Assembly: GCA_963701965.1 (NCBI GenBank)
Contig: OY969695.1
Location: 2,784,001-2,848,000, forward strand
DNA length: 64,000 bases
Origin: an uncultured Gemmatimonadales bacterium
GTDB taxonomy: Bacteria > Gemmatimonadota > Gemmatimonadetes > Gemmatimonadales > Gemmatimonadaceae
Reading direction: 5' to 3'
Below the pieces are notes generated by a model. That model was not told where the DNA came from. It did no database searches and worked only from the letters and a program-made list of their open reading frames with translations. Below are positions 4,236 to 25,153 of this stretch, in pieces; the first letter of the stretch is position 1; each line of letters begins with the position of its first letter. Position numbers and translations under genes: made by a program.

Positions 4236-4957
4236 CCGCCGCGGAGACGGCGCCGACCGTGGCGACGGTGGGCGTCGTCGCCGCGCTCGCCGCGGAAGCG
4301 CGGTGGCTGGACGGCGTGCGCGGACCGCCGGACTCGCCGCTCCGCGTCCTGGTGAGCGGCGTCGGCGCGCGCGCGGCCCAACGCGCCGCCGAGCGCCTGC
4401 TGGCCGACGGCGCGCGGTCGCTCGTGAGTTGGGGCACCGCCGCTGGACTGCATCCGACGCTCGCCCCGGGCACGTTGCTCATCGCGGACCGCGTGCTGGC
4501 GGACGCCGCCGCGACGACCGCCCTCGAGCCTACCCTGGCGTGGGCCGATCGCTTGGCCACCGCGCTGCAGGGCGTGGTCCCGGTCGCCCGCGGCACGATG
4601 GCGTGCCCGCGCGCCGTGCTGCGGACCGCCGCCGACAAGAGCGCGCTGGCCCGCGCCAGCGGCGCGATCGGCGCCGACATGGAGAGCGCGGCCATCGGAC
4701 GGGTGGCCGAGGCGGCCGGTGTCGCCTGGATCGTCGTGCGCGTCGTGTCCGACGGCTGGGACGCCACGGTGCCCGAGAGCGTCGTCGCCGCGGTCGGCAA
4801 TGACGGCGCGATTCGACTCGGCCGGTTGGCGAGGGCCGTCCTCGCGCGCCCGTCCGACCTGCGGGCGTTTCCCGCGCTCGCCCGCGGTATGCGGGTCGCG
4901 GGACGGACGATGCGCCGGGCGGCGCCAGTGCTCGCCTGCGGCGGGCGGGAAGCGTGA
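4232..4957 (+). CDS. hpnG: Hopanoid-associated nucleoside phosphorylase-like protein
   Basis: [21 protein letters not shown] motifs of the PNP/MTAN fold; directly after shc. Confidence 0.8.
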
Positions 4958-5949
4958 TGAAGGCGCTGGTCACGGGTGCCACCGGGTTCGTTGGCGCGGC
5001 GGTCGCGCGCCGCTTGCGCGAGGCGGGACACGAGGTGCGTGCGCTCGTGCGCCCGCGCGCCGATCGCCACAATGTCGAGGGGCGGGGCATCGAGACGGTC
5101 GAGGGAGACCTGACCGATCGCGCCTCGCTCGCGCGCGCGGTGCGCGGATGTCAGGCGGTCTTTCACGTCGCGGCCGACTATCGGCTCTGGGTTCCGTCGC
5201 CTGCCGCGATGTACGCGGCCAACGTCAAGGGCACACGGTCGGTACTGCAGGCAGCCGGGGAAGCGGGCGTCGAGCGGATCGTCTACACGAGCAGCGTCGC
5301 GACCCTGGGCCTGCGCGCCGACGGCTTACCGGCCGACGAGGAAACCCCGTCGACCCTCGACGACATGATCGGTCACTACAAGCGCTCGAAGTTCCTGGCC
5401 GAGGAAGTCGTGCACACCATGGCCGCCTCCGGTACGCCGGTCGTGATCGTGAATCCCTCGACGCCCATCGGGCCGGGCGATGTGAAACCGACACCGACCG
5501 GCCGCATGATCCGGGATGCCCTGGCGGGCCGCATGCCGGCCTACGTCGATACCGGGCTCAACGTGGTGCACGTCGACGACGTAGCGACAGGGCATCTGCT
5601 CGCGTACGAGCGGGGCCAGATCGGGCGCCGTTACATCTTGGGCGGAACCGATATGACGCTCAAGGAGATTCTGACAGAGTTGGCGCACATTGCCGGCCGC
5701 CGTCCGCCACGGTGGCGGCTGCCGCAGCGGGCCCTGCTCCCCATCGCGTATCTCGCGGAAGGATGGGCGCACGTGAGCGGGCGCGAACCGTTGACCACGG
5801 TGGACGGCGTTCGCTTGTCGGCGAAGCGTATGTACTTTTCGAGTGCGAGGGCGGCACGCGAGCTGGGCTATGGAGGGGCGACGCGCGAACCTCGTCGCGC
5901 GCTCGAGGATGCGGCCGAGTGGTTTCGGGGGGCGAGCGTATGGACCTGA
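4957..5949 (+). CDS. hpnA: Hopanoid-associated NAD-dependent sugar epimerase/dehydratase
   Basis: [30 protein letters not shown] motifs. Confidence 0.88.
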
Positions 5950-6896
5950 TTCTGGCGCAACCCCGTGGCTTCTGTGCGGGCGTCGTTCGCGCGATCGAAA
6001 TCGTCGAGCGCACGTTGGAGCTCCACGGGGCGCCCGTGTATGTCCTGCACGAGATCGTGCACAATCGCCGCGTCGTCGAGGATCTGGAGCAGCGGGGCGC
6101 GATCTTCGTCGAGGAGATGAGTCAGGTGCCAACCGGGGCGATCTTGATCTTCAGTGCCCACGGCGTCGCCCGTAAAGTCGAACACGCCGCCGCGGCCCGT
6201 GGGCTGCGCGTGATCAATGCCACCTGTCCTCTGGTCACCAAAGTCCATCTCCAGGCCCAGCGCTACGCGCGCGAGGGCCGCGAGCTGATCATCGTGGGGC
6301 ACGCTGGCCACATCGAGGTCGCCGGAACTGTCGGCCAGGCGGATGGCCCGGTCCACGTCCTGTGCAGTCCAAGAGAAGTGGATGAGCTCGTCGTGACGGA
6401 TCCGGACCGACTGGCGTACGTGACCCAAACGACCTTGAGCATCGACGACACCCGCGAAGTGGTCGATGCGCTCAAGCGGCGGTTTCCGTCGATCAAGGGC
6501 CCCGGACTCGACGACATCTGCTACGCGACCCAGAACCGGCAAAATGCGGTGCGGGCGCTCGCCGTGCGGGCCCATGTCCTGCTGGTGGTCGGTGCAAGGA
6601 ACAGCTCGAACTCCAACCGGCTTCGTGAAGTCGGGGCGCATCACGGAGTACCTTCCTATCTGATCGAGGAAGCGGGCGATATCGATCCCGCTTGGCTTCC
6701 GACAAACGGCGGGCGGGTGGCGATCACGGCTGGGGCGTCGACGCCGGAGGTGTTGGTGGATCAGGTGATCGAGCGGTTGCGAGGGCTCGGCATCCGATCG
6801 GTGTCGACGATCGATGGGGTGAAGGAAACGACGACTTTTCGGCTGCCGGCGGAGCTCGCGCTCCCGGCGACCGGTGATCTCGAGGAATCGGCCTGA
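5940..6896 (+). CDS. ispH: 4-hydroxy-3-methylbut-2-enyl diphosphate reductase
   Basis: [41 protein letters not shown] motifs. Confidence 0.95.
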
Positions 6897-8032
6897 TGGG
6901 TATTCCGTTTTCGGCGCAGGCGCGCATTGCGCGCTATGTCCTGGGGAAAAAGCTCTCGGGACAGAAGCGCTTCCCGCTCGTGCTCATGCTGGAGCCGCTC
7001 TTCCAGTGCAACCTGGAATGCTCGGGCTGCGGCAAGATCGCGTACTCCAACGACATTCTGCGGCGGCGGCTGACGGTCGACGAGTGTCTGGCCGCGGTCG
7101 ACGAATGCGGCGCACCCGTCGTCGCGATCCCCGGTGGGGAGCCGCTGATCCACAAAGACATGCCGGAGATCGTGGCCAAGATCCTGGCCCGCGGCAAGCT
7201 CGTGTCGCTGTGCACGAACGCGATCCTGCTGGCGAAGCGCCTCGACGAGTTCACGCCGTCCAAGTACCTGATGTTCTCGGTGCATCTGGATGGCATGCAA
7301 GAGCGCCACGACGCGTCGGTGTGTCGGGACGGGGTGTTCGAGAAAGCGGTGACCGCGATCCGGCTGGCGCGGCGGCGCGGGTTCCGCGTCTCGATCAACG
7401 CGACGTTGTTCCAGGGCGAGGATCCCGAGAAGGTCGCGACGTTTCTGGACTTTGTCACGACAGAGTTGGGCGTCGAGGGCATCACGCTGTCGCCAGGGTA
7501 CAGCTACGAGAAGGCGCCGCGCCACGACGTCTTCTTGGGGCGGAACGAGAGCAAGAAGTTGTTCCGCGAGATCTTCAAGCGGGGCAAGGACAAAGGCTGG
7601 CCGTTGACGGACTCGTCGTTGTTCCTCGATTTCCTCGCGGGGAATCAGCCGTACGAATGCACGCCGTGGAGCACGCCGACCCGGAACGTGTTCGGCTGGC
7701 AGAAGCCGTGCTATCTCCTCGTGAACGAGGGGTACGCGCCGTCGTTCCAAGCGCTCATGGACGAGACGGAGTGGGAGCAGTACGGGACCGGCAAGAATCC
7801 CAAGTGCGACAACTGCATGGCGCACTGCGGGTACGAGGGCGCGGCGGTCGATGACGCATTCGCGCATCCGATCAAGGCGATGCTGGTGTCGCTCCGTGGG
7901 CCCAAGACCGAGGGGCCGTTCGCGCCGGATCCCGAGGTGCGCTACGCCCGGCCGGCCGGTCGTCCGCCGTTGACCGTGCTGCCGGCCGAGCCGGGCCAGC
8001 GCGCGGCCCGAGCAAAGGGCAACTCCAACTGA
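6896..8032 (+). CDS. hpnH: Adenosyl-hopene transferase (radical SAM)
   Basis: PLVLMLEPLFQCNLECSGCGK (CxxxCxxC), CTPW, GWQKPCY, CDNCMAHCGYE. Confidence 0.93.
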   Translation: MGIPFSAQARIARYVLGKKLSGQKRFPLVLMLEPLFQCNLECSGCGKIAYSNDILRRRLTVDECLAAVDECGAPVVAIPGGEPLIHKDMPEIVAKILARGKLVSLCTNAILLAKRLDEFTPSKYLMFSVHLDGMQERHDASVCRDGVFEKAVTAIRLARRRGFRVSINATLFQGEDPEKVATFLDFVTTELGVEGITLSPGYSYEKAPRHDVFLGRNESKKLFREIFKRGKDKGWPLTDSSLFLDFLAGNQPYECTPWSTPTRNVFGWQKPCYLLVNEGYAPSFQALMDETEWEQYGTGKNPKCDNCMAHCGYEGAAVDDAFAHPIKAMLVSLRGPKTEGPFAPDPEVRYARPAGRPPLTVLPAEPGQRAARAKGNSN

Positions 8033-11326: not shown

Positions 11327-11331
11327 TGCGA

Positions 11332-11363
11332 AAAGTCTCCGAGGAGAAATCCTCGGAGACTTT
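11332..11363. terminator. Perfect 14-bp hairpin, probably a bidirectional terminator for ada and tRNA cassette 1
   Basis: AAAGTCTCCGAGGA-GAAA-TCCTCGGAGACTTT. Confidence 0.8.
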
Positions 11364-11384
11364 CACTACGTGGTGGAAATTAAC

Positions 11385-11402
11385 CACGCCGGCTTGACAA
11401 GT
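11385..11402. repeat. Inverted copy (17/18 nt) of the anticodon-arm region of tRNA cassette 1
   Basis: CACGCCGGCTTGACAAGT versus the tRNA's CACACCGGCTTGACAAGT (reverse complement of 11505-11522). Confidence 0.9.
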
Positions 11403-11461
11403 GCCACGAATGTATGCAATCGCACCGGCGCGGTCAACCGGTAGTTTGGCGCTAACTAGCG

Positions 11462-11545
11462 TGCCCGGAGCGGGACTCGAACCCGCACGACCTCGCGGTC
11501 GCCGACTTGTCAAGCCGGTGTGTCTACCAATTCCACCATCCGGGC
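11462..11545 (-). tRNA. Type II tRNA with tRNA-Leu body but anticodon GAC (Val); CCA not encoded
   Basis: GCCCGGA/TCCGGGC acceptor, A73, D arm GTGGAATTGGTAGACAC, anticodon arm CCGGC-TT GAC AA-GTCGG, long V arm GACC-GCGA-GGTC, T arm GCGGG-TTCGAGT-CCCGC. Confidence 0.9.
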
Positions 11546-11714
11546 ACTCTTCGCGATGGACGGAATTGGATGTTGCGACACGAGCTTCGACTGTCGTTCG
11601 CCACTAGCTAGCGGTGGCGAATCTCGCGCTACGTGAGGCGCGCGTCGTCATCGTTACACTTCGTACATCATCGGGAACGCGGAACTCGACGCCCTGACGC
11701 GGGATAAGAGCCGC

Positions 11715-12557
11715 ATGCCAACACAACTCTTCAGTGGTCTCGTGTTCGGCGAGTCGCCGCGATGGCGTGACGGACGCCTCTGGGTCTCGGACTGGGGCGC
11801 GCGCGAAATCGTGGCGATCAATGGAGCGGGCAAGAGCGAGGTCATCGTTGCCGCGCCGTCCTTTCCGTCGTGCATCGAGTTTCTGCCGGACGGACGGCTC
11901 CTCATGGTGTCCGCGCTCGCCGGGCTGCTGTTGCGCCGCGAACCGAATGGCACGGTGGTGACGCACGCGGATTTGAACGCCGCCAGCAAGCCCGCGTGGA
12001 ACGACATCGTCGTCGATGGGCGCGGCAACATCTTCGTGAACAGCGTCGGCTTCGATCTCTCCAAAGGCGAGCCGTTCGCTCCGGGCTCCGCCGCCGTCGT
12101 CACGCCCGACGGCGCGGCGCGCCGCGTGGCCGCGGGATTCGCGTTCCCCAACGGCATGGCCGTGACGCGCGACAACGCGACGTTGATCGTCGCCGAGTCC
12201 TACGGCAAAAAACTCACGGCGCTAGACATCGCCGCCGATGGCAGCCTGTCGAACCAGCGCGTGTGGGCCGACCTCGGCGACGGCGTCCCGGATGGCATCT
12301 GCATCAATGCCGAGAACGCCGTGTGGTACGCCGACGTCCCCAACAAGCGTTGCGTGCGCGTGCGCGAGGGCGGCGAAGTCCTGGACACGGTCACGCTCGA
12401 CCAGGGGTGCTTTGCCTGCATGCTCGGCGGCTCGGACGGGAAGACGCTATTCATCGTGGCGCGCGAATGGCGGGGCGTCAAGACGATGGCCGACCAGCGC
12501 CGCGTCGGTCAAGTGCTCACAGTGACCGCGCCCGCGGCGCACGCCGGCTGGCCCTAG
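11715..12557 (+). CDS. SMP-30/gluconolactonase/LRE family protein
   Basis: FGESPRW, WNDIVVD, FPNGM, PDGIC motifs. Confidence 0.9.
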   Translation: MPTQLFSGLVFGESPRWRDGRLWVSDWGAREIVAINGAGKSEVIVAAPSFPSCIEFLPDGRLLMVSALAGLLLRREPNGTVVTHADLNAASKPAWNDIVVDGRGNIFVNSVGFDLSKGEPFAPGSAAVVTPDGAARRVAAGFAFPNGMAVTRDNATLIVAESYGKKLTALDIAADGSLSNQRVWADLGDGVPDGICINAENAVWYADVPNKRCVRVREGGEVLDTVTLDQGCFACMLGGSDGKTLFIVAREWRGVKTMADQRRVGQVLTVTAPAAHAGWP

Positions 12558-13483
12558 TGTTCGCCAGGGAGCGGCGTGCCGACGAGGATGGCGGTGGCGA
12601 CGAGGACGAGCGCGCCGATCAGTAGCTCGACGCGGGCGGAGTGGCGGAGGGCGGCTTCGTCACCGGCCACGAGGCGCGGGGTGCCGAGGCGCCAGTTATA
12701 CGCGCCGCAGGCCGCGACGCCGGCGACGAACGCGAGCTTGATCAGGAGCACCGTCCCGTAGCGGGACGAGAACACGGCCCCGATGGAGCCCAGGTGGATC
12801 CAGGCCGCGTAGAGCCCCGTGAGTGACAGCGTCGTCGCCGAGAGGAGCGCGATCGGCGAGAAGGCGCGCACCAGCGCGGCGAGATCGGTGGCGGGCGCCG
12901 CCGAAGCGCGGAGCGGGACGATCGCCGTGAGTGCGAGGACGAAGAGCGTGCCGAGCCACGCCCCGGCGCCGAGGACGTGCAGCATGTCCGCCACAATCGT
13001 GAGCGGCACCGACGGCGAGTCTCCGGTCGCGTGTCCCGAGAGCGCCGGCGTCAGCGCCAGCGCGATCGTCGATGCCGCCGCCACGAGCCAGGCCGGCCGC
13101 GCGCCGAGGCGCGCCCGCGAGAACGCGAAGTAGGCCACGACAATGAGCACGACCGACAGCGTCCACACGCGGCCCCATTGCGTCCGCAGAACCATCGCGC
13201 CGAACAGATCCCGCGCTTCGTCCGCCGACTGGCCGGGATCAGAGAGCGCAGTGTACTGCGCCCAGAGCCGGACTCCCGCGCCGAGCGCCAGCAGCGTCGC
13301 TGCCCAGGCGCCGAGCATGGCCGAGCGCGCCGCGAGCCGCTCGCAATGCGCGATCTCGAGCGCCGGCGCCCGCGCCAAGATGGCGTAGCGGAGCGTGATC
13401 ACTCCGATCGCGATCGTGAGGCCCAAGAACGTGAGCCACCGCCCCCCCGCCGCCGCGAGGGCCGCCGCGCCGAGCGGGTTCAT
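12554..13483 (-). CDS. copD: CopD-family copper resistance membrane protein
   Basis: LSGHA, HVLGAGAWLG, RAFS, YGTVLLIK motifs; downstream of copC. Confidence 0.8.
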   Translation of the reverse strand: MNPLGAAALAAAGGRWLTFLGLTIAIGVITLRYAILARAPALEIAHCERLAARSAMLGAWAATLLALGAGVRLWAQYTALSDPGQSADEARDLFGAMVLRTQWGRVWTLSVVLIVVAYFAFSRARLGARPAWLVAAASTIALALTPALSGHATGDSPSVPLTIVADMLHVLGAGAWLGTLFVLALTAIVPLRASAAPATDLAALVRAFSPIALLSATTLSLTGLYAAWIHLGSIGAVFSSRYGTVLLIKLAFVAGVAACGAYNWRLGTPRLVAGDEAALRHSARVELLIGALVLVATAILVGTPLPGEH

Positions 13484-13504
13484 GTCCAAGCGGCGGCGAC
13501 GCGA

Positions 13505-13900
13505 TCAGTGCGCGGCTGGCGTGACGACGAACGCGAAATGCCCCGACGACGGATGTCCGTCGGTCGCCGTCGTGCGCCAGGCGACATCGTAGGTTCCCGC
13601 CGCGACCTTGCCGCGGACCGAGGCCACGACGGGCGCCGTCTTGCCCGTGTCTGCCGCCAGCGGCGCCAACGCCACGGCCGCGCCCGCGGCCGTCGTGAGC
13701 TTGACGGATGTCACCGCCAGCTCGGGCCGTTCCGAGAACCAGAACTTGAGCGCCGCCGGCGCCGCGGCCACGGTGTCGTTCGCGCTCGGCTCGGAGCGGA
13801 CGAGGTGCAAGTGAGCCGCCGATCGGGCCGCCGGGATCACACCCAGGGCGATGACGGCGCAGGCGGCGGGAATGCGGAAAAGGGAAGCAGTGAGCGTCAT
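13505..13900 (-). CDS. copC: CopC-family periplasmic copper-binding protein
   Basis: Signal peptide, then HLHLVRSEP; WRTTATDGH. Confidence 0.85.
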   Translation of the reverse strand: MTLTASLFRIPAACAVIALGVIPAARSAAHLHLVRSEPSANDTVAAAPAALKFWFSERPELAVTSVKLTTAAGAAVALAPLAADTGKTAPVVASVRGKVAAGTYDVAWRTTATDGHPSSGHFAFVVTPAAH

Positions 13901-13996
13901 ACGTGAAGACTAATAGCCTACGAGCCGGAGCATACCCGCCCGGGCAATGGTGACCCCATCGTCATAGATTGGAAATCTCTTTCACCGGAGCACCCT

Positions 13997-14659
13997 ATGC
14001 AGCGCCTCCTATTCGTTGCCCTGGTGACGGTCGTCCCTGTCGCCCGGGCCCAAGGTACCTTCGAGGGCATCGTGACATACGAAAACACGTCGCCAGCTGG
14101 AGCGAAGTCTTCGTTTGACTATATCGCGAAAGGCAGCAAGGTGCGGATACAAACTCATGATAGCACCAGCGGCATGGGCGGCATGATCATGGACCAAGCC
14201 AACAATACCATGACCGTGATCATCCCCCGGCAGAAGATGTACGCCACGTCGACCATGTCGCAGACGGATCTGTCGCACCACATGGATTCCACGATGCGGA
14301 ACTCCAAGGTCGTGAAAGTCGGGTCGGAAGTCATCGCCGGCATTCCCTGCGATGACTATGCATCGACCAACGCCGCGGGGGAAAAAGAAGGCACCGCCTG
14401 CGTGGCCCACGGCATGGGGAACTGGATGATGTTCGGGATGAACCGGGGCGCGATGGCCCAGATGTCCCAGGCGCCCGGATGGTCGCAGCTCATGTCGGGC
14501 GGATTCTTCCCGCTCAAGTTCGCGGGCAAGGACGGCGAGACAATGGTCGCCACCAAAGTCCAGAAGACCACGGTCGACGCGTCGCTCTTGTCTCCGCCAG
14601 CGGACTACAAGCAGTTCCAGATGCCGGCGGGGATGCCCATGCCCGGGGCGAAGCCCTAG
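13997..14659 (+). CDS. Secreted DUF4412-like protein, Met-rich
   Basis: Signal peptide, FEGIVTY, IAGIPC, PPADYK; GGAG RBS. Confidence 0.6.
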   Translation: MQRLLFVALVTVVPVARAQGTFEGIVTYENTSPAGAKSSFDYIAKGSKVRIQTHDSTSGMGGMIMDQANNTMTVIIPRQKMYATSTMSQTDLSHHMDSTMRNSKVVKVGSEVIAGIPCDDYASTNAAGEKEGTACVAHGMGNWMMFGMNRGAMAQMSQAPGWSQLMSGGFFPLKFAGKDGETMVATKVQKTTVDASLLSPPADYKQFQMPAGMPMPGAKP

Positions 14660-14707
14660 GGGCGGCCCATACGTTGCAATCGTCGTATTGAGCCGGGGGA
14701 TGTCTCA

Positions 14708-15004
14708 ATGCGACGATTGCCTAACGGGTTGATGGTCTTGGGCTTACTCGGGATCACAGCGAGCTCGGCCATTGCACAGCAGGACACCGTCCGGCGCGAC
14801 AGCACCCCGCCCCATCACCGGATAGTGCATCACCAGCCTCCGGTCGCGCACAGCCCGAAGACGCCGGCGGATACCAGCCTCGAACCGCACGCCGCGCCGT
14901 CCCGCCGGGACTCCTCGATCGTCCGCCACGAGATGCGCCACGATACGGCGTCGGTCGGTTCCGATACCGCGGTGCACAAGAAGCCACCGCCGCCTCCGCC
15001 GTAG
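14708..15004 (+). CDS. Small secreted His/Pro-rich hypothetical protein
   Basis: Signal peptide ending AIA-QQ followed by low-complexity sequence. Confidence 0.55.
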   Translation: MRRLPNGLMVLGLLGITASSAIAQQDTVRRDSTPPHHRIVHHQPPVAHSPKTPADTSLEPHAAPSRRDSSIVRHEMRHDTASVGSDTAVHKKPPPPPP

Positions 15005-15053
15005 TTGCCCGTGTGCGACGCCGAGGACAGGTTGTGCATGTGCCGAGTGGCCG

Positions 15054-15974
15054 ATGCTGATCAAGCACCTCGAGTATCTCGTGGCTCTGGCGAGCGAGAA
15101 GCATTTCGCGCGCGCGGCCGCGGTCTGCCACGTCACCCAACCGACGCTTTCAGCGGGCATCAAACAGCTCGAGGACACCCTCGGCGTCCTGGTCGTGGAG
15201 CGCGGCCAACGGTTTCGCGGTCTGACGCCAGAGGGCGAGCGCGTGCTGGCCTGGGCGCAGCGCATCCTCTCCGACGTCGACGGGTTGCGGCAGGATGTCA
15301 GCGAGACCCACGGCGGGTTGATCGGACGGTTGCGCGTCGGCGCCATTCCCGCGGCGCTCCCGATGGTGGCGTTGGTGACCGCCCCATTCGTGGAGCGATA
15401 TCCGGCCGCGACGGCCACGGTGTGGTCGCTCCCATCGATCGGCATCCAGCGCGGCCTCGATGATTTCACGCTCGACGCCGGACTCTCCTATCTCGACAAC
15501 GAGCCGCTGGCGCGCGTGCGCACGGTCCCGCTCTACCGTGAGCGCTACGTGCTGATCACGCCGGAGAGCGGTCCCCTCGGCGGGCGTCCGAGCGCCAGTT
15601 GGCGCGAAGCCGCCGAGCTGCCGCTCTGCTTACTGACGCCGGACATGCAGAACCGGCGCATCGTCGATGGGCACTTCCGGTCGGTCGGCGCCGTCGCGCG
15701 CCCGCGTGTGGAAGCGAACTCGCTCATGGCCTTGGGCTCCCATCTCCGCTTCGGCAGCTATTCCAGCGTGCTGCCGCGAACGGTCCTGGCCGTGATGGGA
15801 CAGCTCCCGGGGATGCGCGCTGTCCCGCTCGTCGAACCCGAGGTCTCGCACGAAGTCGGGCTCATCACCGCCGACCGCGATCCCGCGACGCCGGTGTCCG
15901 CCGCGGTGATGCGAATCGCCGAGTCGCTGCACATTGCAGGCGTCCTCGACCACCTGAGCTGGCCGGGCGCGTGA
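15054..15974 (+). CDS. LysR-family transcriptional regulator
   Basis: HFARAA...VTQPTLSAGIKQLE HTH. Confidence 0.92.
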   Translation: MLIKHLEYLVALASEKHFARAAAVCHVTQPTLSAGIKQLEDTLGVLVVERGQRFRGLTPEGERVLAWAQRILSDVDGLRQDVSETHGGLIGRLRVGAIPAALPMVALVTAPFVERYPAATATVWSLPSIGIQRGLDDFTLDAGLSYLDNEPLARVRTVPLYRERYVLITPESGPLGGRPSASWREAAELPLCLLTPDMQNRRIVDGHFRSVGAVARPRVEANSLMALGSHLRFGSYSSVLPRTVLAVMGQLPGMRAVPLVEPEVSHEVGLITADRDPATPVSAAVMRIAESLHIAGVLDHLSWPGA

Positions 15975-16813
15975 TCGATTCGTCGGACCCGTTGTTCGGC
16001 CTCGGTTACGCGAAACCCTCCCGATCGCGCGAGTTCCTGCGACTCGAGGGCGACGAGGCGCGGGAGGATGCGGCGCAGGTGGCCGAGGAAGTCCCCGTCG
16101 CTATCGCCTACAACAATCGGCCCCACGTCGTGATGATGGCCACGCCGGCCGACTACGACGATTTCGCGTACGGGTTTTCGATCACCGAGGAAATCGTCGC
16201 ATCGGCCGCCGGGATCGAGTCCTGCACGGTCATCCCCTACAGTCAGGGCGTCGAGATCCAGCTCGTCATTCCCCAGGCCGCGGCCGAGGCGCTGGCCGAT
16301 CGCGGGCGACAGCTCGTCGGGCGGACGGGATGTGGATTGTGCGGCGTGCAGACCGTCGACGATGCGCTGCGTCCTCCGCGCGTCGTCGCGCCGCCGCGGA
16401 CGCCGATCCGCCCGGACGCCCTGTGGCGTGCCGAGGCCGCGCTCGCCGCGCGGCAGACGCTCAATCAGGCGACCGCGGCGGTCCACGCCGCGGCGTGGGC
16501 GGAGCCCGACGGCACGCTCGCCGTCCTCCGGGAAGACGTCGGGCGGCACAATGCGCTCGACAAGGTGATCGGCGCGTTGATCCGGACGGGCGTCGATCCC
16601 GCGACCGGGTTCGTGGTGATGACCAGCCGGGCATCATACGAACTGATACAGAAAGTGACCGTGGTCGGCATCCCGTTGCTGGCCGCCGTGTCGCGACCTT
16701 CCGGACTTGCCATCCGGCTCGCCGAGGCTTCGGGCATCGCGCTGGTCGGTCTCCTGCGCGGGCACAGCGCCAACGTCTACTCACACCGGGAGCATCTATC
16801 TCACGCCTCATGA
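15971..16813 (+). CDS. fdhD: Formate dehydrogenase accessory sulfurtransferase
   Basis: VAEEVP, MMATP, CGLCG, REDVGRHNALDK, TSRAS. Confidence 0.92.
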   Translation: MIDSSDPLFGLGYAKPSRSREFLRLEGDEAREDAAQVAEEVPVAIAYNNRPHVVMMATPADYDDFAYGFSITEEIVASAAGIESCTVIPYSQGVEIQLVIPQAAAEALADRGRQLVGRTGCGLCGVQTVDDALRPPRVVAPPRTPIRPDALWRAEAALAARQTLNQATAAVHAAAWAEPDGTLAVLREDVGRHNALDKVIGALIRTGVDPATGFVVMTSRASYELIQKVTVVGIPLLAAVSRPSGLAIRLAEASGIALVGLLRGHSANVYSHREHLSHAS

Positions 16814-17613
16814 TCGTGCCGGCCCTGGCGTTCCTTGCCGCGCCGCTCGCCGCCCAAGACTATGCCGCGCGGATGGCCCATCTGCACGCCGATGACCGGC
16901 CCATCGCCAACGCGTCGGCCATTGCGCCGCGTGCCGACGTGGATACCCAGCAAGTCAGCTACGGCACGGGGATCAATGGGTATCTCGCCAAGCCGAAGAG
17001 CGGCAATCCGAAAGCCGCGGTCATCATGATCCACGAATGGTGGGGGCTCAACGACAACATCCGGATGATGGCGCGTCGGTTGGCCGGCGAGGGCTACACC
17101 GTGCTGGCCGTCGATCTCTACGGGGGTCGCTTCGCGACCACCCCCGACTCGGCGACGGTGCTCACACGGAGCGTCATGCAGAACAAAGATGCCGCGCTGG
17201 CGAATCTCCACGACGCCGTGGCGTATGTGCGCGCGCACGGCGCGCGCAAAGTCGGCGTCATGGGCTGGTGCTTCGGCGGCGGGTGGAGCATACAGACCGC
17301 GCTGGCCGAGGGCGACGCGGTCAATGCCGATATCGCGTACTACGGCTCTCCGGAGCTGGATCGCGCGAAGCTGGCGCAGCTGAAAGCGCCGTTCTTGGGC
17401 CTGTACGGCGGCGCCAATGACGGCATCCCGGTTGCCAAGGTCCACGAGATGGAGACGGCGCTCGATTCGCTGCACAAGACGGTGGCGGTCAAGGTGTACG
17501 ATGGCGCCAAGCACGCGTTCGCGAATCCCTCGGGGACCCACTACGATCAGGCGGCAGCGGACGACGCATGGCAGCGCACGACAACGTTCTTCGCGAAGTA
17601 CCTCAAGGCGTAA
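16810..17613 (+). CDS. Dienelactone hydrolase family protein, secreted
   Basis: HEWWGLN, GWCFGG nucleophile elbow, HAFAN. Confidence 0.9.
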   Translation: MIVPALAFLAAPLAAQDYAARMAHLHADDRPIANASAIAPRADVDTQQVSYGTGINGYLAKPKSGNPKAAVIMIHEWWGLNDNIRMMARRLAGEGYTVLAVDLYGGRFATTPDSATVLTRSVMQNKDAALANLHDAVAYVRAHGARKVGVMGWCFGGGWSIQTALAEGDAVNADIAYYGSPELDRAKLAQLKAPFLGLYGGANDGIPVAKVHEMETALDSLHKTVAVKVYDGAKHAFANPSGTHYDQAAADDAWQRTTTFFAKYLKA

Positions 17614-18215
17614 TGGAGCCACGGTGGCCCGCCACCGTGGCGTTACTGACGATCGGGGCGCTCAATCTCGTGCTGCCCCGATCGTTGACGCTCGGTCCCG
17701 AGTGGCTGCTCCTCGTGATCGTGTGCGTGATGTTGGTGCCGATCATCCTGACGCACCGTCGCGGGCGCTATCAGCTCAACCACGCGTTCGCCATGACGTT
17801 GGCGGTCGCGATCACGATCGAGCTCATGGCGGCGGTCGCCCTGCTGCTGGCGGCGCTGCCGGCGCATACGGAAACTCCCGCCAAACTGCTCCAGTCGGCG
17901 GCGGTGCTGTGGTTCACGAACGTGCTCGTGTTCGCCTATTGGTACTGGCGCCTCGATGCCGGCGGGCCGAACCAGCGGGCCAAGAATGGGCAGAAGAACG
18001 GCTCGTTCTATTTTCCGCAGCTCGTGCGCGGCGATACCGGGTGGCGGCCGGGGTTCATCGACTATCTCTTTCTCGCGTTCACGACCAGCACCGCATTCTC
18101 TCCCACTGACACACCGGTACTCTCTCCATGGGCGAAAGCGCTCACGATGCTCCAGGCCGCCATCGCATTCTCCACGGTGACCGTTCTCCTCGCCCGTGCT
18201 ATCAACTTGCTCTAG
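17613..18215 (+). CDS. DUF1345-like membrane protein
   Basis: FAYWYWRLDAGGP, WRPGFIDYLFLAFTTSTAFSPTD. Confidence 0.75.
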   Translation: MEPRWPATVALLTIGALNLVLPRSLTLGPEWLLLVIVCVMLVPIILTHRRGRYQLNHAFAMTLAVAITIELMAAVALLLAALPAHTETPAKLLQSAAVLWFTNVLVFAYWYWRLDAGGPNQRAKNGQKNGSFYFPQLVRGDTGWRPGFIDYLFLAFTTSTAFSPTDTPVLSPWAKALTMLQAAIAFSTVTVLLARAINLL

Positions 18216-20464
18216 CGCTCGCGGTATTCGGGGCGGTACCGGCGCTGGCCCAGACCGCGGATTCGTCGCGCGTCACGCTCGATCGCCTCTTTGCGTCGGC
18301 TGATTTCGCGACGGACCGGACGGGCGGCCTGGAGTGGCTTCCCAAGTCGCCAGCCTACTCGGCGTTCGAGGCGGGCACGCGGGGCGGCGGTGATCTCGTG
18401 CGCTACGACGCGGCGACGGGCGCCCGGACGGTCCTGGTGCCGGCGGAGAAGCTGGTGCAACCGGGCACGACGCACGAGCTGGCGGTCGAACGCTACGCAT
18501 GGTCGGCCGATGAGAAGAAGCTCCTGCTCTTCACCAACTCGGCGCGGGTGTGGCGGGAGAATACGCGCGGCGACTTCTGGGTCTACGATCTGGCGACCGG
18601 CACGCTCCGGCAACTCGGCGGCGACGCCAAGCCGTCGACGCTCATGTTCGCGACGTTCTCGCCCGATGGCGGCCGCGTGGCCTACGTGCGGGAGCACAAT
18701 CTCTACGTGGAAACGGTCGCCGACGGCCACATCACGCAGCTGACCACGGACGGATCGCCGACGATCATCAATGGAACGTTCGATTGGGTGTATGAGGAAG
18801 AGCTGAACGACCGCAACGGGTTTCGGTGGAGCCCGGATGGGAAGCAGATCGCGTACTGGCAGCTCGACGATGCGGGCGTCAAGGACTACGATCTCATCGA
18901 CGATACGGACTCGCTGTACTCGTTCACGACGCCGGTCCAGTACCCGAAGGCGGGGACGACCAACTCCGGCGCGAGGGTGGGGATCGTCGACGCGGCCGGT
19001 GGCCCGACCCGGTGGCTGGCGCTCACGGGGGACCCCAGGGCGTATCTGATCGCCCGCATGAGCTGGGCCGGCAACTCCGATGCGGTCGTGGTGCAGCGTC
19101 TCGACCGCGAGCAGCATCAGAACGAAGTCGTGTTGGGGGACGCGCACACGGGCGCGGTGCGGCCGGTGCTCACGGAGCGCGATAGCACGTGGGTCGATCC
19201 GGTCGACGACGTGCGGTGGTTCGATCGCGGCGCGCGCTTTCTGTGGGTCAGTGAGCGGGACGGCTGGCGCCGGCTGTACACGGTGGGGCGCGATGGCGGT
19301 GGGGTTCGGCCGCTCACGCCCGCGGCCGTCGACGTCACCACCCCCGGCAGTCCGTTCGGCGAGCCGTTCACCGCCGGCATCGACTCGGCCGCGGGCTGGG
19401 TCTATTACACGGCGTCGCCGACGAACGCCGCGCAGCTGTATCTGTATCGCGCCCGATTGGATGGCAGCGGCCGCGCCGAGCGGGTGACGCCAGCCGCGCA
19501 GGGCGGGGTGCATGAGTACGAGCTGTCGGCGGACGCGAAGTTCGCGATCCATCACTGGTCAGCGTTCGGCACACCGCCCACGGTCGAGATCGTGCGATTG
19601 CCGGACCACCACGTCATACGGCAGGTGACCGACAATGCGCGGCTCGCCCGCACCGTGCGGGCGTTGGCCCGGGGGCCGGTCGAGTTCACCCAGATCGACA
19701 ACGGCGCGGGCGTGCGGCTCGATGCCTGGATCATGAAGCCGCCGGCGTTCGATTCGACGCGTAAATATCCCGTCCTCTTTTTCGTGTACGGCGGGCCGGC
19801 CGAGCAGACCGTCCTCGATCAGTGGGACGGAGACCAGTATCTGTGGCATCTCATGTTGACCCAGATGGGATACATCGTGGCTTCGGTCGACAACCGTGGT
19901 GCGCCATCGCCCCACGGACGCGCGTTCCGGCACGCCATCTACAAGCGCGTCGGCGTCGTCGAGTCCGCCGACCAGACGGCCGCGGCCCGCGCGATCGCCG
20001 CGCGATCGTACGCTGACGCCACGCGCGTCGGAGTCTGGGGATGGAGTAACGGGGGCTCGATGACCCTCAACCTGCTGTTCCGCTCGCCCGACGTCTATCG
20101 CATGGGCATCGCCGTGGCGCCGGTGACCGACGAGCGGTTCTATGACACGATCTATACCGAGCGCTATCTCGGTCTGCCGCAAGACAACGCCGAGGCGTAC
20201 AAGCAGGCCTCGCCGCTCAACTACGTCGATCACCTGCGCGGCGATCTCTTGCTCGTGCATGGTTCGGGCGATGACAACGTGCACTATCAGAACAGCGAGG
20301 CGCTCATCAACGCGCTGGTGGCGGCGGACAAGCCGTTCACGATGATGGCGTATCCCAATCGCACGCACTGCATCTGCGAGGGCGAGAACACGTCGCGCCA
20401 CTTGTACGGCCTCTTGACCCGGTACGTGCGCGATCACCTGCCGGCGGGACCGAGCGTGCAGTAG
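18128..20464 (+). CDS. S9 family dipeptidyl-peptidase IV-like protein
   Basis: DWVYEEE, YPKAG, GWSNGG, DDNVH, YPNRTH; start uncertain (overlaps upstream gene). Confidence 0.92.
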   Translation: MGESAHDAPGRHRILHGDRSPRPCYQLALALAVFGAVPALAQTADSSRVTLDRLFASADFATDRTGGLEWLPKSPAYSAFEAGTRGGGDLVRYDAATGARTVLVPAEKLVQPGTTHELAVERYAWSADEKKLLLFTNSARVWRENTRGDFWVYDLATGTLRQLGGDAKPSTLMFATFSPDGGRVAYVREHNLYVETVADGHITQLTTDGSPTIINGTFDWVYEEELNDRNGFRWSPDGKQIAYWQLDDAGVKDYDLIDDTDSLYSFTTPVQYPKAGTTNSGARVGIVDAAGGPTRWLALTGDPRAYLIARMSWAGNSDAVVVQRLDREQHQNEVVLGDAHTGAVRPVLTERDSTWVDPVDDVRWFDRGARFLWVSERDGWRRLYTVGRDGGGVRPLTPAAVDVTTPGSPFGEPFTAGIDSAAGWVYYTASPTNAAQLYLYRARLDGSGRAERVTPAAQGGVHEYELSADAKFAIHHWSAFGTPPTVEIVRLPDHHVIRQVTDNARLARTVRALARGPVEFTQIDNGAGVRLDAWIMKPPAFDSTRKYPVLFFVYGGPAEQTVLDQWDGDQYLWHLMLTQMGYIVASVDNRGAPSPHGRAFRHAIYKRVGVVESADQTAAARAIAARSYADATRVGVWGWSNGGSMTLNLLFRSPDVYRMGIAVAPVTDERFYDTIYTERYLGLPQDNAEAYKQASPLNYVDHLRGDLLLVHGSGDDNVHYQNSEALINALVAADKPFTMMAYPNRTHCICEGENTSRHLYGLLTRYVRDHLPAGPSVQ

Positions 20465-20491
20465 CGGTGACAACGCGATCGCCACGATGAC

Positions 20492-20530
20492 GGCTAGCGG
20501 CTCGAAGTGGAGATATTCGAGTCGCTAGTT
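20492..20530 (+). other. 15-bp hairpin in the leader of tRNA cassette 2
   Basis: GGCTAGCGGCTCGAA-9 nt-TTCGAGTCGCTAGTT (three G-U pairs), enclosed by CGCCAC/GTGGCG. Confidence 0.6.
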
Positions 20531-20588
20531 AGTGGCGTGCAATGAGTGAGCCCGTGTCGCAGCATCCAGTTTCATCCGCGTGTAGAGT

Positions 20589-20672
20589 GCCCGGATGGTG
20601 GAATTGGTAGACACGGCAAACTCGCAAATTGCCGACCGTAAGGTCGTGCGGGTTCGAATCCCGCTCCGGGCA
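20589..20672 (+). tRNA. Type II tRNA with tRNA-Leu body but anticodon CGC (Ala); A31-A39 mismatch; CCA not encoded
   Basis: Acceptor and D arm identical to 11462-11545; anticodon arm GCAAA-CT CGC AA-ATTGC; V arm GACC-GTAA-GGTC; T arm GCGGG-TTCGAAT-CCCGC; A73. Confidence 0.88.
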
Positions 20673-20726
20673 CGCTAGCTAGCGCCACATTGCGCGTCGC
20701 TTCCTGGTTTCATAGATTCAAGGCAC

Positions 20727-20742
20727 TTGCGAGTTTGCCGTG
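20727..20742. repeat. Perfect 16-nt inverted copy of the anticodon-arm region of tRNA cassette 2
   Basis: TTGCGAGTTTGCCGTG is the reverse complement of CACGGCAAACTCGCAA (20612-20627). Confidence 0.92.
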
Positions 20743-20743
20743 G

Positions 20744-20776
20744 CGAGCCCCGGGGAGAGATCCTCGGGGTTCGTTT
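20744..20776 (+). terminator. 13-bp hairpin with GAGA loop, terminator-like
   Basis: CGAGCCCCGGGGA-GAGA-TCCTCGGGGTTCG then TTT; core resembles the 11332-11363 hairpin. Confidence 0.7.
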
Positions 20777-22419: not shown

Positions 22420-25153
22420 GCGGTTGCAGGCCGGTCTCGGCTCGGCCTATACGATCGAGCGCGAGATCGGGCGCGGCGGCATGGCGACCGTCTTTCTCGC
22501 CCAGGATCGGAAGCACGACCGCCCCGTGGCGGTCAAGGTGCTGCACGCGCATCTCGCGGCATCCCGAGGTCCGGAGCGGTTTCGGCGCGAGATCACGCTC
22601 GCAGCCCGTCTGCAGCATCCCCACATCCTCGCCGTCCACGATTCCGGCGAGAGTCCCGACGGGCTCCTGTGGTTCACCATGCCCTTCGTCGACGGTGAGA
22701 CCCTGCGCGAACGGCTCATGCGGCAGCGGCAGCTGCCGGTCGACGAGGCGTTGCGCATTGCGTCCGACGTGGCCGGCGCGCTGGAGTATGCGCACGCGCG
22801 CGGCATCATCCATCGCGACATCAAGCCCGAGAACATCCTGCTGTCGAGCTCCCATGCTCTGGTGGCCGACTTCGGCATCGCGCGGCCAGTCGCGGAGGAG
22901 GGCGACCCCGCGCTGACCGAGATCGGGCTGGCGGTTGGGACGCCGGCCTACATGAGCCCCGAGCAGGCCCACGGCGAGCGCACGCTCGATGGCCGCACCG
23001 ACATCTACAGCCTCGGCACGGTGCTGTACGAGATGCTGGCCGGCGAGCCGCCGTTCACGGGACCGTCGGCGCGCACGGCGAAGATGCTGAGCGGCAGCGC
23101 GCCCTCCGTGCGGCGCCGGCGGCCAACCGTCAGCGAATCGGTCGATCTCACCCTGCAGAAATCGCTGGCGCCGGTGCCGGCCGACCGGTTCGCGTCGGCC
23201 GGGGAGTTCGCCGAGACACTGGCCGCGGGCGGCAGCGGGCGGCACACGGGGCGATACAGCAGCGGGACCGCCATCGGCGGCCGTCCGCGGATCGGACTGG
23301 CCGCCGCGGCCGCGGCCGCGATCGCGCTGGTCATCGTGTTCGTGGCCGTGGCCGGACGTTGGCGCGGCGCCGCGCACGCCGGATCGATCGGCGTGCTCGC
23401 GGTGCTGCCCTTCGACAACTTCGGCGCGGGCAGCGATGAGTATTTCGCCGAGGGGCTGACCGACGAGCTGCGCGCGAAACTGTCGGCGATCGGCGGGCTT
23501 CGCGTCATCGCGACCGGGAGCTCGGAGCAGTATCGCCACAGCCCGAAATCCCAGACCGAGATCGCCCGCGAGCTCGGCGCGCGGTATTTGCTCGTGGGCA
23601 GCGTGCGGTGGGAGCGACTCGCCGACGGCAAGAGTCGGGTGCGGGTGAGCCCGGAGTTGGTCGATGTGACGTCGCCGGCGCCGACGACGACGTGGAAGCA
23701 GGCGTTCGACGCGGCCGACCTCGAGGATGTGTTCACGGTCCAGGCGAACATCGCGACCAATGTCGCGGCCAAGCTCGGCGTGGCGCTGGGTGGCGCGGTG
23801 CCGAAGGTCATCACCACGCGGCCGACGGAGAACCAGGCGGCGTACAACGCGTATCTCCAGGGGTTGGCGCTGTTGCCGCGGACGATCACGGCGGGCACGA
23901 CGACACCCTCGGCCGGTGTCGCGCGGCAGGCGGCCGCGGCGTTCCGCCAAGCGGTGTCGCTCGATCCGCGGTTCGCGGATGCGTGGGCGCGGCTGTCGTT
24001 GGCCGACTCGCGGCTCTATCTCGCCGAGCCGTCGCCGGCGGTGTTGGCCGAGTGCCAGGCCGCGGCCGAGCGGGCGTTGGCCATCGCGCCCACGCTGGCC
24101 GATGGGCATCAGGCGATGGGCGCGTACTACGCCACGGGGCCGGGCGATTATGCGCGCGCGCTGGCCGAGGATTCCATTGGTCTCGCCGCCGAGCCGGACA
24201 ACGTCGATCTCTTGACGTCGGCGGCGGCCAACGAGATCAACGTCGGACGATTGGATCCCGCGATTGCCCGTCTGCGCCGCGCGTTGGCGCTCGATCCGCG
24301 GTCGGTGTTGACGGCGACGCGGTTGGCGTCGGCGCTGCTCCGCCGGGGCGATTTCGCCGGCGCGCGCGACGCGGCGGATCGGGGGCTGGCGGTCGATCCG
24401 ACGAGTCTGGCGCTGTTGGAAGCCGACGCGACGGCGCGCCGCGCGCAGGGCGATCTCGCCGGGGCGCGCGCCGTGCTCGATCGGGCGCTCGCGGTCGCGC
24501 CGGACAATCTCGAGTTGATCGAGCAGAAGGTCATCACGTATCTCATGGCGGGGGATCTCGCGGGCGCGCGCGGGGTCGTGCGCGCGGCGTCGGCGCTCGT
24601 GGACACGCGGGCGTTGCTGGCGTACATTGGCGGGGTGTACGACCTGTACTGGGTGTTGGACGACGCCGATCAGCGGACGCTGCTCTCGGTGCGGCCGGAA
24701 ACGTTTACGGGGGCTGGTGCTGGGAACCGGCGGGATTGGGCGCTGGCGCTGGCGCACACCGCGTGGTTGCGGGGGGACGCGGCGAAGGCGCGGGCGTATG
24801 CCGATACCGCGCTCATCGCCAGCGGCGCGGACGACGGAAGTCCCAGCGCGCAGGATATGGCGCTGCGAGGTGTCGCGTATGCGTATCTCGGGAAGGCGGC
24901 CGAGGCGAAGGCCGCCGGTCGGCGCGCGACGGCGTTCGATCCCATCGCGACGGATCGGCAGAATGGGCCGTACACGCAACTGTTACTGGCGCGCATCCTC
25001 GTGCTGGCCGGCGAGCCGGATAGCGCGGCCGCGGCGCTGGCGGTCGCGGCAGGGGCGAAAGGCTTCTATCTCACGCCTGCGTGGTTGGCGATCGATCCGA
25101 CCTGGAAGGGCTTGCCGCGAGTGCCCTCGAGTCTGCAGGTTCCGGCCAACTAA
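22397..25153 (+). CDS. Ser/Thr protein kinase with TM helix, TolB-N-like domain and TPR repeats
   Basis: GRGGMATV, HRDIKPEN, DFG, GTPAYMSPEQ, LAVLPF, repeated LALDP helices. Confidence 0.92.
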   Translation: MASDNLRERLQAGLGSAYTIEREIGRGGMATVFLAQDRKHDRPVAVKVLHAHLAASRGPERFRREITLAARLQHPHILAVHDSGESPDGLLWFTMPFVDGETLRERLMRQRQLPVDEALRIASDVAGALEYAHARGIIHRDIKPENILLSSSHALVADFGIARPVAEEGDPALTEIGLAVGTPAYMSPEQAHGERTLDGRTDIYSLGTVLYEMLAGEPPFTGPSARTAKMLSGSAPSVRRRRPTVSESVDLTLQKSLAPVPADRFASAGEFAETLAAGGSGRHTGRYSSGTAIGGRPRIGLAAAAAAAIALVIVFVAVAGRWRGAAHAGSIGVLAVLPFDNFGAGSDEYFAEGLTDELRAKLSAIGGLRVIATGSSEQYRHSPKSQTEIARELGARYLLVGSVRWERLADGKSRVRVSPELVDVTSPAPTTTWKQAFDAADLEDVFTVQANIATNVAAKLGVALGGAVPKVITTRPTENQAAYNAYLQGLALLPRTITAGTTTPSAGVARQAAAAFRQAVSLDPRFADAWARLSLADSRLYLAEPSPAVLAECQAAAERALAIAPTLADGHQAMGAYYATGPGDYARALAEDSIGLAAEPDNVDLLTSAAANEINVGRLDPAIARLRRALALDPRSVLTATRLASALLRRGDFAGARDAADRGLAVDPTSLALLEADATARRAQGDLAGARAVLDRALAVAPDNLELIEQKVITYLMAGDLAGARGVVRAASALVDTRALLAYIGGVYDLYWVLDDADQRTLLSVRPETFTGAGAGNRRDWALALAHTAWLRGDAAKARAYADTALIASGADDGSPSAQDMALRGVAYAYLGKAAEAKAAGRRATAFDPIATDRQNGPYTQLLLARILVLAGEPDSAAAALAVAAGAKGFYLTPAWLAIDPTWKGLPRVPSSLQVPAN

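Follow-up and report, generated by a model that had tools for sequence, protein, structure and literature searches.

What is a transfer RNA (tRNA) gene doing with an antisense copy of its own anticodon arm behind it, and why does one genome carry such a pair more than once? The question is raised by a stretch of 64,000 nucleotides (nt) from an uncultured Gemmatimonadales bacterium (assembly GCA_963701965.1, contig OY969695.1, positions 2,784,001 to 2,848,000; hereafter the window), in which a first-pass annotation, made from the letters alone, had described two cassettes of this build. Each cassette joins two predicted non-coding RNA genes at a single locus, a tRNA and a unit composed of promoter-like site, antisense arm and terminator-like hairpin. 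We propose, with a probability of about 0.62, that the cassette is a two-RNA toxin-antitoxin (TA) module in which a slowly maturing miscoding tRNA would be restrained by an antisense small RNA acting as its antidote. Genomes are labelled G000 (that of the window) and G001 to G005 (those of relatives), and surveyed tRNA loci by L and a number.

The antisense arm pairs with its own tRNA

The two tRNA genes were called by ARAGORN and Rfam. That of copy 1 lies on the reverse strand (11462..11545, anticodon GAC (Val), 57.8 bits) and that of copy 2 on the forward strand (20589..20672, anticodon CGC (Ala), 51.6 bits). The trailer of copy 1 (11402-11385) pairs at 17 of 18 positions with tRNA positions 24-41, leaving one A·C mismatch, and a second segment of 8 nt (11378-11371) pairs exactly with the 5′ strand of the D stem. 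The trailer of copy 2 (20727-20742) pairs with its own tRNA at 16 of 16 positions, while the 17-nt anticodon arms of the two copies differ at 10 positions; all these pairings had been reported in the first-pass annotation and were reproduced. The genome holds a third cassette (G000:C1:2559321-2559405), whose arm differs from both others and is likewise matched by its own trailer. Such complementarity greatly exceeds what chance would give. In the 160 nt that follow each tRNA, the longest stretch exactly antisense to the anticodon region measures 14, 14 and 16 nt in the three cassettes, compared with 4-9 nt at the other 59 of the genome's 62 ARAGORN calls, some of which are false positives. Folds of tRNA plus trailer gave z scores of −7.4 for copy 1 and −5.2 for copy 2 (200 shuffles each).

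The proposal that trailers track the anticodon arm, with a search of relatives and metagenomes as its check, was followed up with a pattern consisting of a leucine-type D arm and a non-leucine anticodon. The scans returned 22 viral, 73 genome and 59 metagenome loci, further matches were added from searches of 60 relatives, and 155 tRNA-like matches were left once duplicates had been removed. A match was taken as a cassette if at least 13 consecutive pairs anchored on the anticodon loop were found no more than 170 nt downstream of the tRNA; the tandem arrays L063 and L116 were excluded, as were matches followed by less than 100 nt of sequence. By this rule 61 of the 155 are distinct cassettes, all of them same-strand and downstream by selection. 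They comprise 55 distinct arms and 14 anticodons (Asp, Ala, Gly, Val, Thr, Glu, Pro and Arg, none Leu), a spectrum biased by both search patterns, each of which excluded some anticodons.

Across the 61 cassettes the mean duplex energy was −30.9 kcal/mol for cognate pairs versus −13.3 kcal/mol for non-cognate ones. When each tRNA was set against trailers of different arms, the cognate trailer was the best in 54/61, and the 3 × 3 matrix within the genome is diagonal. Nearest-neighbour pairs, defined without using the arm, gave 23 non-overlapping comparisons with 33 double changes, 7 changes kept by G·U and 2 broken pairs; anticodons differ in 8 of the 23, and the lineages are not fully independent. 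The co-variation of each trailer with its own arm is thus strongly supported. G·U outnumbers A·C by 30 to 5 over all columns and by 22 to 5 in stem columns, and such an excess in the stems points to selection on RNA pairing on the cassette strand, not on a DNA inverted repeat. An RNA antitoxin is expected to be complementary to its toxin RNA and specific for it, and both properties are seen in the cognate versus swapped duplexes and in the compensatory changes. Moreover, each predicted small RNA pairs 9-11 kcal/mol better with its own tRNA than with any other tRNA call of the genome. A reversal of roles, with the small RNA as a toxin directed against host tRNAs, was rejected on that same 9-11 kcal/mol deficit with the other calls.

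A leucine-type body with a foreign anticodon

The first-pass annotation had overlooked that the bodies of these tRNAs disagree with their anticodons. ARAGORN labels the two copies Val and Ala by anticodon; the body is of class II, leucine-type, with a long variable arm. Copy 1 has A73, A15:U48, G18G19, A20a, C2:G71 and a 4-bp variable stem, CCA not being encoded. Copy 2 is likewise leucine-type, lacks G3:U70 and forms 4/5 anticodon-stem pairs, with A·A at the loop-closing pair. Among the full-length cassette tRNAs (n=59), A73 and U48 occur in 59/59, C2:G71 in 54/59 and G3:U70 in 0/59; the acceptor stem has 7 pairs in 56/59, the T stem 5 pairs in 58/59, and variable stems have 4-5 pairs. The D-loop letters belong to the search pattern and are not independent evidence, and U48 is likewise fixed for the metagenome matches. 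Leucine identity in E. coli resides in A73, A15-U48, G18G19 and A20a and not in the anticodon (PMC9976931, excerpt), and the cassette tRNAs carry the bacterial tRNA-Leu identity set of A73, A15:U48, G18G19, A20a and long variable arm. The Ala-anticodon copy, devoid of the main alanine determinant, is a predicted substrate of leucyl-tRNA synthetase (LeuRS), and the Val-anticodon copy may have a dual identity and be partly charged with the correct amino acid. A leucine-type body joined to a non-leucine anticodon would supply a reason for the lock.

The genome also has an ordinary tRNA-Val(GAC), an ordinary tRNA-Ala(CGC) and a full tRNA-Leu set, and reassignment of the genetic code was rejected on the presence of the first two. 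The codons read by the window copies are common ones, GCG ranking 1 and GTC ranking 4 among the codons of the genome's long open reading frames (ORFs). The ordinary tRNA-Val(GAC) gene also has a second, degenerate copy at G000:C1:1809504-1809573.

A promoter-like internal site and a probable separate small RNA

In copy 1 a promoter scan returned a single promoter-like site (0.1 expected), located just before the anti-arm. This sigma-70-like site (11409..11437, reverse strand) consists of a −35 element TTGACC (11437-11432), a 17-nt spacer and a −10 element TACATT (11414-11409). The RNA predicted from it (11331..11402, reverse strand, both ends predicted) would start at A11402, 7 nt past the −10, and comprise the anti-anticodon arm (11402-11385), the anti-D segment (11378-11371) and a terminator-like hairpin with its T run (11364-11331). 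The corresponding site of copy 2 (20690..20718, forward strand) has TTGCGC (20690-20695), a 17-nt spacer and TAGATT (20713-20718), and is weak, but it sits at the position conserved in the family. The predicted RNA (20725..20776, forward strand) would start at A20725 and hold the anti-arm at 20727-20742 and a terminator-like hairpin at 20745-20776. The motif CATASATT of the first-pass annotation is real and shared by the copies, and is now read as the −10-like box of this internal site.

The same arrangement recurs in the family. The best promoter score is at least 8/12 in 55/61 cassettes (median shuffle p 0.01), with TTGACT as −35 element in 33. In 53/61 a gap of 8-9 nt separates the end of the −10 from the anti-loop, whereas the distance from tRNA to anti-loop ranges over 46-111 nt, and the base 7 nt past the −10 is a purine in 43/58. 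A terminator-like hairpin ends the unit in 54/59. The RNA so predicted is 45-75 nt long (median 67), and its 5′ end is the complement of the anticodon loop, with the geometry of a seed.

A profile search with the promoter-arm-terminator unit found further copies. Some stand beside no tRNA (L003, L072, L102, L122 and L110) and others beside the 3′ half of a tRNA alone (L080 and L090); at L003, L072 and L102 an antisense unit is placed upstream of the tRNA. At L110:1723-2180 (reverse strand) one GCC tRNA is followed by three units of different specificity with the cognate one last, behind two terminator-like hairpins, a row that resembles an immunity array. Units at L132, L142 and L160 were dropped as orphans when found to follow further full cassettes; these loci are tandem whole cassettes with different anticodons. 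The third cassette of the genome (region G000:C1:2559150-2559650, equal to L003:1419-1800, reverse strand, CGC anticodon) has a second antisense unit upstream, with its own −10 and terminator and a 16/18 match to the arm. The promoters of the tRNA and of this upstream unit have in common a repeated 18-nt near-palindrome, a possible operator.

Four loci titled Gammaproteobacteria (L062, L085, L097 and L104) present leucine-type tRNAs that combine an Ala anticodon with a very long variable arm. From 71 nt downstream, a promoter-like site of the opposite strand points into the tRNA, and a hairpin lies just past the tRNA 5′ end, a layout that suggests a whole-gene antisense RNA. L062 and L104 also contain a truncated 5′-half unit. 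Reverse-strand promoters behind solo leucine-type tRNAs are not general (shuffle p ≤0.03 in 8/55 rows).

The arm is thus fixed in position to its promoter and not to the tRNA, and together with the orphan, arrayed and opposite-strand units this indicates that the antisense arm is likely a separate small RNA acting in trans, and the main device of the cassette.

Leader and precursor folding

The inactive precursor proposed in the first-pass annotation was retained in part. Misfolding is indeed predicted, the acceptor stem being formed in 56/59 tRNAs folded alone, in 14/59 with the leader and in 0/59 with the trailer; the notion of the anti-arm as a cis trailer only is disfavoured, as the promoter geometry is fixed to the arm. 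The contrast with ordinary tRNA-Leu genes is suggestive only, the control being small and unclean (4 of 6 genes evaluated, one of the 4 also losing its acceptor stem with long flanks). Leader and trailer are predicted to misfold a read-through precursor and so to provide a cis lock besides the small RNA.

In the minimum free energy fold of leader plus tRNA of copy 1, the leader (11546..11613, reverse strand) pairs with most of the tRNA 5′ half, to which it is imperfectly antisense over about 11596-11552, and the 5′ strand of a predicted closing helix (11613-11599) pairs with the bases past the discriminator (11448..11461, reverse strand). Copy 2 is arranged alike on the forward strand, with a leader at 20523..20588 that is also imperfectly antisense to the tRNA 5′ half, a closing-helix strand at 20523-20537 and its predicted partner directly 3′ of the discriminator at 20673..20686. 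The CGCTAG motif noted earlier is real and is now read as this helix. A strong hairpin upstream of copy 2 (window 20492-20531), kept in G001, G003 and G004, overlaps the closing-helix strand and would compete with it. In swap tests the leader 5′ end and post-discriminator segment are weakly specific (14/60 cognate pairs in the top 5%). Single folds made it attractive to read the leader as another exact anti-arm; that reading was rejected on the weak swap test (10/60 in the top 5%), and the leader is kept only as an imperfect, lagging cis lock.

Distribution of the cassettes

Since the 61 cassettes had been picked by pairing, a denominator based on record titles was used alongside. Among the 73 genome loci an antisense unit is present in 28/28 evaluable Gemmatimonadota-titled ones, one more locus being cut off; 26 of the 28 have it directly downstream, L110 and L127 being the other two. 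The unit is also found in 3/3 Planctomycetota-titled loci, there shifted onto the variable arm, and in one short Propionibacteriaceae-titled contig. The cassettes lie mostly in Gemmatimonadota-titled records, the closest named ones in Gemmatimonadales records. At seven loci (L066, L089, L123, L137, L180, L184 and L127; three Planctomycetota-titled) the antisense is a variant whose pairing begins on the variable arm and the 3′ anticodon strand instead of the loop.

Solo leucine-type tRNAs with Asp, Glu, Gly or Ala anticodons occur in several phyla (L070, L087, L095, L098, L109, L117, L118, L129 and others), including four Solirubrobacterales-titled loci (L059, L079, L084 and L112); an antisense partner was not detected within 700-800 nt, and several have U73 or broken acceptor stems. 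One alphaproteobacterial chromosome carries six tandem leucine-type tRNAs with CGC or GCC anticodons at a period of 206-207 nt (L063:2993-3297 and L116:2993-3710), among which no antisense unit was found. Two viral contigs, L050 and L054, are near-identical phage loci whose leucine-type tRNA differs solely in its anticodon (AGC versus TCC).

Genomic context

The neighbours of the window copies are ordinary: ada/ogt, gluconolactonase, copD/copC, a DPP-IV peptidase and a radical-SAM gene. In G001, G003 and G004, of the same genus, ada runs directly into copD, with copy 1 and the gluconolactonase gene (SMP-30/gluconolactonase family, 11715..12557, forward strand) both missing, and the latter is possibly cargo of the same insertion. 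The site of copy 2 holds a cassette in G001, G003 and G004, none in G002 and another gene in G005. The cassettes are hence patchy, with empty orthologous sites, and come and go between relatives. The exact pattern was present in 5 of 400 other genomes of the phylum in a scan that excluded Val anticodons, tRNA loci being often unassembled. Cassettes adjoin an S10 peptidase gene in L072, L083, L090, L102 and L103, where anticodons differ at orthologous sites (GGC, GGT and AGC), and follow mutS in L075 and L127; L101 and L075 have a TonB-like gene downstream in common. The 69 flanking ORFs include three type II TA genes and one methylase, and type II TA or restriction-modification genes are neighbours at L066, L078, L090 and L092. 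No synthetase family was found among the 69 flanking or the 23 window ORFs. At gathering scores Rfam returned only RF00005 (tRNA) in the window, with no T-box riboswitch or other family.

Elsewhere in the window, 22673-22840 and 37018-37185 form a 168-nt inverted match of 70%, the first arm being in a Ser/Thr kinase gene, probably from paralogous kinase domains, and 2223-8032 is an ordinary hopanoid-type cluster (squalene-hopene cyclase, epimerase, LytB and radical-SAM genes).

A two-RNA model and its alternatives

The anatomy, the co-variation, the promoter geometry, the orphan units and the patchiness are observed, and upon them we build the following model. A leucine-type tRNA with a foreign anticodon would cause leucine to be inserted at codons that are abundant and stand for Ala, Val, Asp, Gly or Glu. 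A weak upstream promoter would yield the precursor, in which pairing of the leader with the tRNA 5′ half and the post-discriminator bases would slow maturation; read-through to the terminator would lock it further in cis. The stronger internal promoter would produce the RNA of 45-75 nt, beginning 1-2 nt before the anti-loop, which would seed on the 7-nt anticodon loop and unzip the 5′ anticodon strand and the D stem. With this RNA in excess (abundant and probably short-lived) the tRNA would be sequestered or degraded. When transcription stops, through loss of the cassette, phage take-over or stress, the tRNA would outlast its small RNA, mature and cause mistranslation across the proteome. Arm and anti-arm, by changing together, would create new insulated specificities, which would account for genomes with several copies that do not cross-react and for the orphan antidotes left behind. 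As a precedent for toxicity, growth arrest and death of E. coli followed the induction of an allo-tRNA of Ser identity and Leu anticodon (PMC5389517, excerpt). Transcription, leucylation, toxicity, relative stability and purpose are what we infer.

Probable in our judgement is also the wider claim that the cassettes constitute a new protein-free class of TA system, with a code-rewriting tRNA toxin that places leucine at the commonest codons and the first dedicated anti-tRNA small RNA. The class would have insulated specificity groups, orphan arrays conferring immunity to incoming cassettes, and the same logic in other layouts, directed at the variable arm in Planctomycetota and at the whole gene in Gammaproteobacteria.

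Several observations weigh against the two-RNA module. The leucine identity rules applied are those of E. coli and may not be those of Gemmatimonadota, and copy 1 carries the valine determinants A35, C36 and A73 (PMC9976931, excerpt). Promoters and start sites are consensus matches; the site of copy 2 scores 7/12 (shuffle p 0.21) and was uncalled by the scan, and an upstream promoter at a fixed position was not found across cassettes. In the predicted small RNA only about half of the anti-loop is unpaired (median 0.54), the leader tracks its own arm weakly (10/60 in the top 5% of swap tests), and L177 is a 5′-damaged tRNA with a mismatched arm. A downstream antisense arm is absent from 40/73 genome loci, in other phyla, so such tRNAs can exist without antisense control, and none was found behind the 22 viral-contig leucine-type tRNAs with foreign anticodons (0/22). 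Integrase and transposase families were not found among the 69 flanking ORFs (at most 2 per side), and plasmid and phage collections gave only tRNA-body matches over about 30% of the query and no whole cassette.

The alternative that survives best, although improbable, retains the same RNAs and pairing and makes of them a switch that serves the host, for controlled mistranslation or phage-triggered abortive defence, instead of selfish addiction. It would accord with cassettes lying between housekeeping genes and persisting at orthologous sites (the S10 peptidase and mutS loci), with the few type II TA or restriction-modification neighbours, and with the deliberate mistranslation by tRNA-ProX in Streptomyces (PMC11415595, excerpt). 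However, the pattern is rare in the phylum, anticodons change at orthologous sites and orphan antidotes accumulate, all of which is more readily explained by turnover under conflict than by a fixed role in physiology.

More doubtful is that the tRNA is no leucine miscoder, the small RNA still being its repressor. Uncharged, or charged by the synthetase of its anticodon, it would stall ribosomes or elicit the stringent response, or would act as a decoy for tRNA-cutting toxins. Consistent with this, 17/59 tRNAs fall short of 5 anticodon-stem pairs, C33 or an altered T loop occurs in some tandem copies (L132 and L160), Val-anticodon copies carry valine determinants, and several allo-tRNAs were inactive in translation (PMC5389517, excerpt). 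Yet A73, U48, the 7-pair acceptor stem, the T stem and the 4-5-pair variable stem are kept across 14 anticodons, as for a LeuRS substrate, and the nev-tRNAs of nematodes, alike in build, accept leucine alone and read GGG as Leu in vitro (PMC3333845, excerpt).

Slightly less credible again is a purely cis arrangement, the anti-arm being the trailer of one precursor that stays in an inactive fold until processed. The same-strand, downstream position in all 61 follows from the selection; the cloverleaf is lost in 59/59 predicted precursors and no terminator was found between tRNA and arm in either window copy, as this arrangement would have it. It is at odds with the fixed distance between promoter and arm, with units that have no tRNA, precede it (L003, L072 and L102) or sit behind terminators (L110), and with the four gammaproteobacterial reverse-strand sites, which could not act in cis.

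A DNA-level feature devoid of RNA function (an invertible segment or arm-replacement template, both raised in the first-pass annotation, or the end of a gene-less mobile element) is very improbable: the cassette is an insertion relative to its kin, L080 and L090 keep only the tRNA 3′ half before the unit, like an integration remnant, and template switching between inverted repeats could aid joint arm changes, but the G·U excess in stems is a strand asymmetry unexpected from DNA repeats and disfavours templating as sole cause, the arm lies between a conserved promoter and terminator, and neither an inverted form among the 61 nor a recombinase family among the 69 flanking ORFs was seen.

Comparison with known systems

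RNAs that engage a tRNA through its anticodon are familiar. In CreTA, a CRISPR-linked RNA toxin-antitoxin, CreT sequesters a host tRNA through rare codons, and T-box riboswitches sense a host tRNA by a 3-nt specifier. The cassettes are alike in the part of the tRNA that is engaged and differ in using 14-28 consecutive pairs and in having their own tRNA as target.

Other tRNAs also join a body to a mismatched anticodon. Allo-tRNAs have a long variable arm and diverse anticodons that mismatch their identity (Mukai et al., PMC5389517, excerpt); they have missense activity and toxicity in E. coli and are found near toxin-antitoxin genes in soil metagenomes. Their acceptor/T stems are 8/4 or 9/3, with Ser or Ala identity and G73 or U73 (same excerpt), whereas the cassette tRNAs have the canonical 7/5 stems (7-pair acceptor 56/59, 5-pair T 58/59), A73 in all 59 and G3:U70 in none. 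An antisense partner of allo-tRNAs is not described in the excerpt of PMC5389517, and the word "antisense" is absent from the review PMC7609411. In the tRNA-ProX/ProRSx pairs of Streptomyces and Kitasatospora body and anticodon likewise disagree, and these tRNAs mistranslate when expressed in E. coli (PMC11415595, excerpt). They differ in having a Pro body, A33, three anticodons and a dedicated, neighbouring ProRS isoform, while the cassettes show a leucine-type body and U33 in 59/59 (fixed by the pattern); "antisense" is absent from that review. Nematode nev-tRNAs are tRNA-Leu-derived, class II, leucine-charged and equipped with non-Leu anticodons, but are eukaryotic and tend to match rare codons, as against mostly abundant ones for the cassettes, and the excerpt of PMC3333845 names no antisense partner.

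Searches of full-text literature listed no paper on an antisense RNA directed at a miscoding tRNA, though subscription papers and supplements (for instance that of PMC5389517) could hold one. The cassette family is real, conserved and apparently undescribed. Annotation tools label its genes ordinary tRNA-Val, -Ala or -Asp and so hide them from view. If the model is true, bacteria keep code-breaking tRNAs under dedicated antisense control, and both the regulatory mode (a small RNA against a tRNA) and the toxin type (a miscoding tRNA) are ones that we have not found described. It would offer a testable answer to why tRNAs of the mismatched kind, allo-tRNAs and tRNA-ProX among them, persist and how their hosts survive them. 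The module, of about 300 nt, protein-free and with at least 55 natural arm variants, is easy to test in laboratory E. coli, and could furnish orthogonal RNA switches for tRNA activity in genetic-code engineering.

Type I systems are characterized by fold-back inhibition, slow 3′ processing and, in Sok, a single-stranded 5′ seed. The cassettes resemble them (hok-sok, tisB-istR, ldr-rdl) in the short antisense RNA with its own promoter (PMC8610362, excerpt), in the predicted misfolded and slowly activated precursor, and in the several intergenic chromosomal copies with private specificities and no adjacent mobility gene. They differ in that no toxin ORF is present among ORFs of at least 80 aa; instead of a small-protein toxin and its translation-initiation region, the antisense target is the anticodon loop and D arm of a conserved tRNA cloverleaf with compensated stems.

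In type VIII systems (SdsR-RyeA) toxin and antitoxin are both RNA, and the antitoxin masks the toxin by antisense binding (PMC8610362, excerpt), as predicted for the cassette. SdsR, however, is a small RNA that regulates mRNAs, and RyeA comes from the opposite strand of the same locus (same excerpt), whereas the predicted toxin of the cassette is a foreign-anticodon tRNA and its antidote a same-strand downstream gene, of partial, co-evolving complementarity and at least 14 specificities. In mode of action the cassette would therefore resemble a type VIII RNA-RNA system and in layout a type I system, without being filed by us as a member of either type.

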